Program-made: the position numbers and the translations under genes
Assembly: GCF_003334385.1 (NCBI RefSeq)
Contig: NZ_QOWN01000109.1
Length of the DNA stretch: 1,785 nucleotides
Strand: one strand, 5' to 3'
DNA from: Escherichia coli
GTDB taxonomy: Bacteria > Pseudomonadota > Gammaproteobacteria > Enterobacterales > Enterobacteriaceae
Part shown: piece after piece, positions 1 to 1,785 of the stretch
How positions within the stretch are numbered: the stretch's first letter is position 1
How the letters are laid out: every line of letters starts with the position of its first letter
The notes under the pieces: generated by a model
The model's database searches: none
The model's input: the letters and a program-made list of their open reading frames with translations, nothing else
What the model was told of the DNA's origin: nothing

Positions 1-1662
1 AAACAGCTGGCGCGTCGCAGTACGGTGACGCCGGGTGGTGCCGCCTGTAAATATAACGACATCATTCCGGCAGACCACTGTCTGCATGATGTGCAGGATA
101 TGAGTAACCTGAATCATCCTGAAGCGGACCTTAATAAAGGGCAGTACGGTTGTGTGGGGCATGCTCTGCATGTTGCCAAAAAGCTGCTGCCGTTTATGCC
201 TGCGAATGCGGGTATCCTTCTTGTTCCATGTGGCCGTGGCGATTCGGGATTTACTGCGGGGGCCGAGGGGGCGTTTAACGAAGCGTCGGGAGCGACCGCA
301 GGCTCGTCCCTGTGGGGGGCGGATAAACCGCTGTATCATGACCTGGTCAGCAGAACCCGTGCGGCCCTGAAGAAAAATCCGAAGAACGTGCTGTTATCAG
401 TGATCTGGATGCAGGGAGAAAAAGATGTCAGTTCGGGGAGACATGCAGAACACAATGCGCTTTTCCTTGCCATGGTAAATCAGTTCCGTACGGAACTGGC
501 AGATGTGGCAGAGCAGTGTACTGGCGGGACAACGGCCAGCGTCCCGTGGATTTGCGGTGATACCACGTACTACTGGAAGGAAAGGTATGCAGCGCCGTAT
601 GAGGCGGTTTACGGTGGGTATAAAGGCAAAGCTGCGCAGAATATTCACTTTGTGCCGTTGATGACGGATGAGCATGGTGTGAATGTGCCGACAAACGAGC
701 CGTCAGAAGATCCGGACATTATCCCGGCGGGATACTATGGTGCTGCGTCACGCACTGCCAGTAACTGGACGTCAGCCGATCGTAAAACGCACTTCAGTTC
801 ATGGGCGCGAAGAGGCCTTGTTTCAGACCGCCTGGCAGGTGCCATTTTGCAGTACGCCGGGCGGACATTATCGTTCCTTACCGGGCAGAGCGCACCGCAG
901 TCGGGTGGTACAACTCCCGGTGATGATGTCAGTCCGGGGGTACCGGGTGTTGAGAAACCGCAGGATGGCGGTGTTGCTGGTACTGGTCATGATGAGGCCG
1001 TGAGCAGTACCAGGACGGTGGCTGAATATGATGCGAACAGTGGAAATGGTGTATGGACAGAGCAGCAGTGGGGGGCTGCCGGTGGCAAAGGCACTGTGAC
1101 TGATGACGGTGGACGGAAAGCGCTACGACTGGAAAAACAGCCCGGTAAACTGACGTCCTGGAAAATGTTCCGTACTGTTGCAGTGGAGGAGGCAAAAAAT
1201 CTTCTCAGCAAGGGGGGTGAAATTGCCGTACGGTTCAAAATTCCGGATGGAAGCGAACTGGTGAACGGACAGTTTGTCTTTGGTCTCTACTGGCCGGTGT
1301 CGCAGTGGGCGTCAGGCGCGGCAGCAAACAGTATGCTGGCATCATTCTTCCTTCAGACGGATGCATCAAATCTGAATCTTATGCACCACAAGGGCACGTC
1401 GAATGCACAACTGGGTACATTTGGTGCGTTTGACCATAACTGGCATACGGTTGTTTTCCGCTTTGCGGGAAATAACAGCGAAAGAGTCGTTCCGGTGATT
1501 GATGGTACAGAGCAGACGGCGTTTGACCTTGTGATGTGGACAAATGATGGCTTTACAGCAGATACGCTGACGCTGACAGATATCACGGGGGCAAAAGCGA
1601 CGTATCCTGTACTGCTTGATACGGTCACAGTCAAAGTTAACGAAAGCCGGGCATCATCATAA
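1..1662 (+). CDS. nanS-p: Prophage-type sialate O-acetylesterase (SGNH/SASA family, NanS-p-like), 5'-partial: esterase core + Gly/Pro linker + C-terminal module of unknown function
   Basis: Seen in sequence: the frame is open from nt 1 with no stop until TAA at 1660-1662 (553 codons in window). The ORF track starts at GTG 25, but that GTG has no SD upstream and the frame stays open to the edge, so the true start is most likely upstream. Motifs read from the translation: 'GILLVPCGRGDSGF' (nt 211-252, Gly-containing block II-like), 'VIWMQGEKD' (nt 400-426, the W-QGE-D/N signature of sialate O-acetylesterases), and 'DRKTHFSSWARRGLVSDRLAGAIL' (nt 778-849, putative catalytic His in the C-terminal D..H block). 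The Ser-containing block I (GQSN-type) is not clearly visible and is probably just upstream. Established knowledge: SGNH block order I-II-III-V. The prophage NanS-p assignment and gene symbol are from memory of the family, not from a search. Confidence 0.85.
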   Translation, partial: KQLARRSTVTPGGAACKYNDIIPADHCLHDVQDMSNLNHPEADLNKGQYGCVGHALHVAKKLLPFMPANAGILLVPCGRGDSGFTAGAEGAFNEASGATAGSSLWGADKPLYHDLVSRTRAALKKNPKNVLLSVIWMQGEKDVSSGRHAEHNALFLAMVNQFRTELADVAEQCTGGTTASVPWICGDTTYYWKERYAAPYEAVYGGYKGKAAQNIHFVPLMTDEHGVNVPTNEPSEDPDIIPAGYYGAASRTASNWTSADRKTHFSSWARRGLVSDRLAGAILQYAGRTLSFLTGQSAPQSGGTTPGDDVSPGVPGVEKPQDGGVAGTGHDEAVSSTRTVAEYDANSGNGVWTEQQWGAAGGKGTVTDDGGRKALRLEKQPGKLTSWKMFRTVAVEEAKNLLSKGGEIAVRFKIPDGSELVNGQFVFGLYWPVSQWASGAAANSMLASFFLQTDASNLNLMHHKGTSNAQLGTFGAFDHNWHTVVFRFAGNNSERVVPVIDGTEQTAFDLVMWTNDGFTADTLTLTDITGAKATYPVLLDTVTVKVNESRASS

Positions 1663-1667
1663 CCGGC

Positions 1668-1704
1668 AAAAAAAGCCGCCAGCGGCAGGAACGGAAGCTG
1701 GCGG
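1668..1704 (-). terminator. GC-rich hairpin (8-bp stem, 13-nt loop) with an A7 tract on its 5' side; intrinsic-terminator geometry only for minus-strand transcription
   Basis: Seen in sequence: CCGCCAGC (1676-1683) is the exact reverse complement of GCTGGCGG (1697-1704), with 7 of 8 pairs G:C and loop 1684-1696. The A-run at 1668-1674 becomes a U7 tract immediately 3' of the stem on the minus strand. On the + strand the stem is followed by AGGTAATCCC, with no U-tract. No folding energy was computed. Confidence 0.3.
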
Positions 1705-1707
1705 AGG
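1703..1707 (+). promoter_or_regulatory. Shine-Dalgarno (GGAGG) 8 nt upstream of ATG 1716; its first two bases lie in the 3' arm of the hairpin
   Basis: Seen in sequence: GGAGG at 1703-1707, spacer 1708-1715 (TAATCCCA), ATG at 1716-1718. Overlap with stem positions 1703-1704. Confidence 0.4.
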
Positions 1708-1715
1708 TAATCCCA

Positions 1716-1760
1716 ATGGAGAATGTAAAGAAAAGATGCTTTCGTATATCGGTTTTTTAA
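1716..1760 (+). CDS. 14-codon micro-ORF (MENVKKRCFRISVF) with strong SD; possible leader peptide, or chance
   Basis: Seen in sequence: ATG 1716 to TAA 1758-1760, with a good SD at optimal spacing. It is too short for codon statistics and no homology is recognised. The stop is directly followed by ATG 1761 (TAAATG). Confidence 0.2.
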   Translation: MENVKKRCFRISVF

Positions 1761-1785
1761 ATGAAAACAGTTCTCATTGTCAACC
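1761..1785 (+). CDS. Start of a downstream ORF (MKTVLIVN...), 3'-partial, running off the window; product unknown (a lysis-cassette or other late gene would fit a prophage context)
   Basis: Seen in sequence: ATG 1761 directly abuts the micro-ORF stop, and the frame is open to the window end. There is no SD of its own, so translational coupling would be needed. An alternative start in another frame exists at ATG 1736 (MLSYIGFLNENSSHCQ..., also open to the end) with only an A/G-rich weak SD. Only 8 codons are visible, so identity cannot be assigned. Confidence 0.25.

Follow-up and report, generated by a model that had tools for sequence, protein, structure and literature searches.

The 1,785-nucleotide (nt) stretch of Escherichia coli DNA considered here, from contig NZ_QOWN01000109.1 and referred to below as the window, very probably comes from the late operon of an E. 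coli (pro)phage of the lambdoid kind, devoid of Shiga toxin (Stx). It holds the last 1.66 kb of a nanS-p-type gene for a sialate O-acetylesterase, together with the start of the spacer behind this gene. A preliminary description of the window had named an esterase of this type, and Pfam, PHROGs, and PDB matches bear this out; it had also placed the gene in the late region of a lambdoid prophage, downstream of Q and upstream of the lysis genes, a setting that is recovered, by homology, in all the relatives inspected. For the toxin gene that it considered a possible neighbor, a tblastn search with Stx2 A and B (E ≤ 1) gave no match in the same relatives.

The context was read from the annotation around 15 relatives that carry the esterase allele of the window, namely 13 E. 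coli chromosomes (96.8–99.6% nt identity to the window) and the isolated phages PhiR5_1 (98.8%) and PhiR12_1 (87.9%), for an overall range of 87.9–99.6%; these correspond to loci L001–L009 and L011–L016. The reference Stx2 phage, used as control (L010), and a locus with another esterase allele (L017) bring the number of loci read to 17.

Esterase Gene and Protein Architecture

The esterase gene occupies nt 1–1662 of the plus strand: frame 1 runs without internal stop for 553 codons, from nt 1 to the TAA at 1660–1662, and it corresponds to codons 110–662, plus the stop, of relatives with 662 codons. The other 109 N-terminal codons (327 nt) are upstream of the window, where the preliminary description had located the missing N-terminus. 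The translated window differs at only 2 of 553 residues from the proteins annotated in RefSeq as "SASA family carbohydrate esterase" in L001 and L005; at the DNA level, the best matches are to annotated esterase genes of complete E. coli chromosomes (99.6%) and to the isolated phage PhiR5_1, and the allele is carried by two independent groups of isolated phages, that of PhiR5_1 (98.8%) and that of PhiR12 (87.9%), on which a search of the literature gave nothing relevant.

As for the domain content, Pfam was run on the full-length, 662-residue protein of the relative L001 (99.6% identical), and it returned DUF1737 (residues 3–50, E = 2.3e-15), SASA (81–276), and DUF6645 (511–619, E = 1.6e-32). 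DUF1737 is outside the window, and the N-terminal sequence is kept in L011 and L010. PHROGs assigned the protein to phrog_143 (E = 1.6e-303), and a sequence search of the PDB matched residues 74–394 to E. coli NanS/YjhS (3PT5, E = 3.7e-114) and residues 448–656 to a chain deposited as "NanS-p" (6YP6, E = 3.9e-48).

Identity was then expressed domain by domain, with the Stx2-phage NanS-p VT2phi_272, of 645 amino acids (aa), as reference; all the segments described here are on the plus strand. The window opens inside the NanS-like SGNH/SASA catalytic domain, the remainder of which (window aa 1–285, full-length aa 110–394; nt 1–855) is delimited by the 3PT5 alignment and is 68.7% identical to the reference. 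It includes the WMQGE motif of the SGNH block III region (window aa 136–140; nt 406–420), kept in NanS and in all the NanS-p proteins aligned, and the last SGNH block with its His, DRKTHFSS (window aa 260–267; nt 778–801), identified from the alignment and reading RKTH. Block I, GQSN, which contains the catalytic Ser, is found at full-length aa 85, outside the window, and it is present in all the full-length relatives aligned.

The catalytic domain is followed by an interdomain linker rich in Gly, Pro, and Ser (window aa 286–338; nt 856–1014), which the alignment identifies as the most divergent segment and one variable in length because of indels; it shares 35.5% of its residues with the Stx2-phage allele and 45% with that of PhiR12, whereas the flanking domains reach 69–93%. 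A preprint has suggested that the phi24B protein processes itself at an SSP motif; this motif is absent as such from the linker, where VSP and VSS are present instead. Finally, the C-terminal part is a lectin-like jelly-roll domain (window aa 339–553; nt 1015–1659), recognized by Pfam as DUF6645 and by the PDB search as a homologue of 6YP6; it is 46.9% identical to the Stx2-phage allele, and in the alignment the four aromatic residues proposed for its carbohydrate site are kept as F425, Y430, F450, and F518. Judged from its sequence, the gene is of the NanS-p type and is a divergent allele of a known family.

Gene Order in the Related Loci

One arrangement, on one strand, is common to all 15 loci: replication/nin genes, antiterminator, variable cargo, esterase, DUF1378, DUF826, class II holin, lysozyme, Rz, and terminase/head genes. 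The flanks of the window itself presumably follow the same order. A YdfR/DUF1327 gene or pseudogene is often found between the class II holin and the lysozyme, and truncated YdfR pseudogenes occur in many loci. Upstream of the esterase, a Q-type or other antitermination gene is annotated in 14 of the 15 loci, and L014 has a DUF1133 protein at that position; the antiterminators are of several unrelated types, with Q-family proteins of ∼107–131 aa, antitermination proteins of ∼273 aa, and an "antitermination protein Q" in both isolated phages.

Regarding the downstream genes, their positions were obtained by tblastn with the L001 proteins and are given as window-equivalent coordinates. Across the 15 loci, DUF1378, the first real gene after the esterase, starts at 1792–1802, 7–17 nt beyond the window end; DUF826 starts at 2012–2022, the class II holin at 2358–2388, and the lysozyme at 2599–4795. 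The holin is the third gene downstream, ∼575–600 nt past the window end, and not the next open reading frame (ORF), for which the preliminary description had considered this role possible. The literature on Stx2a phages reports the Q-to-S region in the order Q, stx, nanS-p, and S, with DUF826/DUF1378 genes between nanS-p and S; it also describes holins of the P21/H-19B pinholin type in these phages, an increase of nanS-p expression upon induction, and the occurrence of nanS-p in non-Stx prophages (PMC10462455).

The stretch that separates the antiterminator from the esterase is more variable in content. The tRNA genes that the preliminary description named as possible upstream are there in 8 of the 15 loci, as Ile-Arg, Ile-Arg-Arg, or Arg-Arg sets, and are absent from the other seven. 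The Rfam scan for small RNAs (sRNAs) covered nine loci, eight with the allele of the window plus the reference Stx2 phage, and in all nine STnc100 ends ∼210–230 nt before the ATG of the esterase, four of them having it twice; in five of the nine, AsxR, an antisense sRNA, is found between STnc100 and the esterase. The STnc100/AsxR module is known downstream of stx2 in Stx phages (PMC12370729), and it has this position in L010 as well. The paired STnc100 copies (RF02076, 141–166 bits) are ∼280 nt apart, at 10760–10965 and 11243–11452 in L001 and at 7760–7965 and 8243–8452 in L003, and are also found in L004 and L006; the minus-strand pseudogene ("internal stop; incomplete") that RefSeq places over the first copy probably results from miscalling of the sRNA region.

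In the early region of some of these loci, Rfam also detected a pair formed by isrK and the C4 antisense RNA, beside Rha or antirepressor genes (L001 2368–2556, L004 143–331, L006 1489–1677, and L011 2995–3182); this pair represents a P1/P7-like immunity element in lambdoid backgrounds.

The stx Position and Its Cargo

The A and B subunits of Stx2 from the control locus L010 were used as tblastn probes, with a reporting limit of E ≤ 1 and with no separate probe for Stx1. No match was returned in any of the 15 loci with the allele of the window, the control scoring 100%, and none of the 15 has a gene annotated as a toxin; the toxin neighbor envisaged in the preliminary description is not supported by these relatives. 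In them, the position of stx is either empty or filled by other cargo, such as the gene of a TolA-like protein, a DNA methyltransferase gene, or low-GC genes on the reverse strand.

The TolA-like protein has 142 aa, a lipoprotein-like N-terminus, and a TolA C-terminal domain (Pfam, E = 8.2e-23); its gene is found between the tRNAs and STnc100 in five loci (L005, at 7720–8148, and L007, L008, L009, and L013), the exact position of stxAB in Stx phages, and it could be simple cargo or a candidate for superinfection exclusion. The low-GC cargo (37–39%) is on the minus strand between the antiterminator and the esterase, for instance at 8785–9942 in L001 and at 3703–6094 in L003, and its products are a 385-aa protein annotated as "type I restriction endonuclease", a 404-aa hypothetical protein, and a nucleoid-associated protein. 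When the cargo genes lying between Q and the esterase were scanned with PADLOC, the methyltransferase alone gave a match; no defense model was assigned to the "type I restriction endonuclease" gene, to the 404-aa and 287-aa reverse-strand genes, or to the TolA-like protein.

Alternative Readings

A Stx-converting prophage of the 933W kind, with stxAB directly upstream of the esterase, would have the same module order as L010 (Q, tRNAs, stxAB, STnc100, esterase, holin), and STnc100, AsxR, and the Ile/Arg tRNAs do occur upstream in the relatives, several of whose host strains are labeled as E. coli that produce Shiga toxin (STEC). This origin is nevertheless highly improbable: in addition to the empty Stx2 search and to the lack of annotated toxin genes, the gap between the tRNAs and STnc100 is, in the loci that have tRNAs, empty, occupied by the 142-aa TolA-C-domain protein, or too short for stxAB. 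The esterases of Stx phages are also distant from that of the window: coverage of the window protein reaches 80% or more in 342 phage records, which are overwhelmingly Stx1/Stx2-converting phages, nearly all with less than 60% aa identity; among the matches listed, the Stx-type phage records have ∼50–55%, and at the DNA level the match of Stx phages is confined to window positions 1–720, with ∼73% identity. An even smaller chance, close to nil, is left to the window being the chromosomal nanS (yjhS) of the sialic-acid regulon or part of a plasmid backbone, two contexts that the preliminary description had named as those that would overturn its proposal and that were not encountered. The catalytic domain is indeed homologous to NanS, and a few plasmid-labeled records match in part; however, the 337-residue NanS chain accounts for full-length residues 74–394 only, and window positions 856–1659 are filled by the linker and by DUF6645, so that the domain architecture of the predicted protein refutes a chromosomal nanS. 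As for plasmids, no record covers at least 80% of the window, and the one matching the 3′ tail (L017) is a 237-kb linear, plasmid-labeled record with the same prophage late layout and a different esterase allele. In the complete E. coli genomes, 2787 of the 2795 matching places are chromosomal, and every one of those inspected is a prophage.

The third rival keeps the same context and carries more weight, although it is still rather unlikely: the source prophage would be a cryptic remnant, with the esterase outside Q-dependent late control and acting, if at all, like a gene that the host has domesticated and expresses at a basal level. It draws on the decay visible in the relatives, which include an internal stop in the lysozyme of L008, a frameshifted portal gene in L001, an IS1414 copy in the lysis region of L005, and the YdfR pseudogenes, and on the report that phage-borne nanS-p allows lysogens to grow on the O-acetylated sialic acid Neu5,9Ac2 (PMC8065619). 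Conversely, none of the 15 loci has a broken esterase frame, each has an antiterminator gene, or a gene in the equivalent position, upstream, and isolated phages (PhiR5_1 and those of the PhiR12 group), with E. coli C and K-12 MG1655 as recorded hosts, carry the allele. Because some relatives are visibly decaying prophages, Q-dependent expression is not guaranteed in every host, and this decay also counts against the late operon of a lambdoid (pro)phage without Stx, which stays the preferred reading. Other points weigh against it in the same manner. No NCBIfam model names the protein, so that the naming of the gene relies on Pfam, PHROGs, and PDB; no record among complete E. coli genomes, phages, and plasmids is 100% identical to the window, the best reaching 99.6%, and its context comes from relatives. 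Likewise, the block with the catalytic Ser and DUF1737 are outside the window, so that the intactness of the whole gene in the source genome is presumed. Finally, activity and specificity equal to those of the Stx-phage enzymes are assumed by analogy, with a protein that differs from VT2phi_272 to the extent given above for the catalytic domain, the linker, and the C-terminal domain.

Sequence Downstream of the Stop Codon

The last part of the window (nt 1663–1785, plus strand) is non-coding and aligns with the first 123 nt of the spacer between the esterase and DUF1378 in the prophage late operon. It is identical in L001, L003, L004, L005, and L011, has one mismatch in L002, and is also found behind the different esterase allele of L017. 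The preliminary description had stated that nothing inside the window proves its context, and this was slightly too modest: since DUF6645 is absent from chromosomal NanS and the spacer is identical to the one between esterase and DUF1378 in prophages, the window itself contains evidence specific to the phage form of the gene, the remainder of the context coming from the relatives.

Just 3′ of the stop codon, at nt 1668–1704, a run of seven A (1668–1674) precedes a G+C-rich hairpin with a stem of 8 bp (1676–1683 paired with 1697–1704) and a folding energy of −18 to −19 kcal/mol. It is kept in all the relatives, the Stx2 phage included, and across esterase alleles; L006 retains the stem with a different loop. 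The z-scores of its folding are unremarkable (−1.2 and −1.4). A role as terminator on the plus strand was rejected, given that no T-run follows on this strand, the z-scores are weak, and compensatory changes are not seen in the alignment. Read on the minus strand, the hairpin is followed by seven T and resembles an intrinsic terminator; the neighboring genes are all on the plus strand, and no minus-strand gene that would need such a terminator was found, leaving the hairpin with its A-run simply as a conserved element. For two of the hits, H29 (L006) and H30, identity to the window stops at nt 1686, inside the loop of the hairpin, and in L006 the spacer differs from there down to the start of DUF1378 (L006 10631–10828); this suggests a mosaic recombination junction at the hairpin, at about nt 1686.

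At nt 1761–1785 of the plus strand is the start of a 14-codon mini-ORF (MKTVLIVNHNGKKL and a stop) that runs off the window end and that extends, in loci L001–L005 and L007–L017, to window-equivalent position 1805; its TGA overlaps the ATG of DUF1378 in the sequence ATGA, at window-equivalent 1802–1805. Of the 17 loci, 16 retain the mini-ORF, L010 and L017 among them, and its changes in the Stx2 phage are mostly synonymous; the exception is L006, which has ACG in place of ATG. No Shine–Dalgarno-like sequence is visible upstream of the ATG at 1761, and the mini-ORF is either a leader ORF for coupling or a product of chance. Its identification as the holin was discarded, because 14 codons do not compare with the 71 aa (216 nt) of the class II holin and because the ATG is lost in L006. 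Another ORF of 14 codons, at 1726–1770 (MENVKKRCFRISVF and a stop), was rejected as coding, its Stx2-phage version stopping after four codons. Finally, no σ70-like promoter was found in the window, in keeping with read-through transcription of the downstream genes from upstream.

Proposed Expression, Role, and Significance

Upon prophage induction, the Q-type antiterminator would allow RNA polymerase to read on from the late promoter through the variable region with cargo, tRNAs, and STnc100, and then through the esterase, DUF1378, DUF826, and the lysis cassette (class II holin, lysozyme, and Rz). By this Q-dependent read-through, the esterase would be produced late and set free at lysis. Its NanS-like SGNH domain is predicted to deacetylate sialic acids at O-9, for example Neu5,9Ac2 on mucin glycans; the lectin-like jelly roll at the C-terminus presumably directs the enzyme to carbohydrate, and the N-terminal DUF1737, outside the window, may anchor the protein to the capsid, as reported in a 2026 preprint (10.64898/2026.04.10.717836).

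As for the experimental background, esterase activity was demonstrated on the nanS-p alleles of EDL933 and O104:H4 that were tested, and the fold of the C-terminal domain is that of a lectin-like jelly roll; NanS-p enzymes take O-acetyl groups off Neu5,9Ac2 and mucin glycans, on which they allow lysogens to grow, and few late genes are induced as strongly as theirs (PMC8065619). By analogy, the allele of the window probably has the same esterase activity as the other NanS-p alleles.

In conclusion, the window represents a known class of phage cargo gene, one that helps E. coli lysogens to use the O-acetylated sialic acids of mucus, and it matters little beyond correct annotation: the esterase family, its architecture, its late-operon position, and its presence in non-Stx prophages are already published, and the protein is in RefSeq with 551 of 553 residues identical. 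For annotation, two practical points follow. The allele marks non-Stx lambdoid prophages, and its presence should not be taken as the sign of a toxin phage; in addition, the next ORF after the esterase should not be called the holin. The loci also illustrate the reuse of the stx slot, which hosts the TolA-C-domain protein, the methyltransferase, or the low-GC reverse-strand genes instead of the toxin.

Comparison with Known Esterases and Phage Modules

The chromosomal NanS/YjhS (3PT5), located in the nanCMS operon, is homologous to the catalytic domain of the window protein over its whole length and shares the GQSN, WMQGE, and xxxH blocks with it. NanS is a single domain of ∼330 aa (337 residues in the solved chain), whereas the window protein has in addition the linker and the C-terminal domain, and DUF1737 in the full gene.

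The NanS-p proteins of Stx phages, such as L0105/z1466 of 933W and vb_24B_21 (gp84) of phi24B, have the same combination of DUF1737, NanS-like SASA/SGNH domain, and C-terminal jelly roll, with the SGNH motifs kept, and an aa identity to the window protein of ∼55% overall. Their genes occupy the same slot, from the late antiterminator to the S holin, with STnc100 before and the DUF1378 and DUF826 genes after. Differences are seen in the sequence: the aromatic residues proposed for the sugar site of phi24B are Y510, Y515, Y540, and F611 (PMC10462455), and they correspond to F425, Y430, F450, and F518 here, with Tyr replaced by Phe at two of the four positions; similarly, the last SGNH block reads RKTH in the window and RSSH, RASH, or RPTH in the published Stx2a-phage alleles (PMC10462455).

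The phi24B homologue is reported to be proteolytically processed, its DUF1737 domain decorating a capsid with T = 9 geometry (2026 preprint, 10.64898/2026.04.10.717836). The podovirus head module of phi24B is not that of the window relatives, which have head genes of the lambda type (Nu1/A/W/B/D/E) or of a type with a 645-aa major capsid protein; the former is annotated in L002, L004, L011, and L016, the latter is found in most chromosomal loci, and L014 has a third packaging module. In terms of linkage, head genes of the lambda type (Nu1/A/W/B/C/D/E) accompany the allele in PhiR5_1 and PhiR12_1 (L002 18532–25724 and L011 12481–15779), and the 645-aa major-capsid module does so in most chromosomal prophages (for example, L001 19736–23958). 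Considering the C-terminal domain with 47% identity, the change from Tyr to Phe at two of the four site residues, the RKTH block, and head modules other than that of phi24B, the allele might be functionally distinct from the characterized Stx-phage enzymes, having another glycan or O-acetyl specificity, or a DUF1737 that sits on a different capsid lattice or is not virion-associated; this is improbable on present evidence, and, if true, it would bear on whether NanS-p proteins are primarily enzymes that benefit the lysogen or virion modules for the interaction with mucus.

Finally, the comparison extends to the late cargo, or "moron", slot of Stx phages, ordered as Q, tRNAs, stxAB, STnc100/AsxR, nanS-p, S, R, and Rz: the relatives of the window have the same order and the same non-coding RNA elements, and the holin downstream belongs to the same class II family, of the P21/H-19B type, as that of the Stx-converting lambdoid phages.

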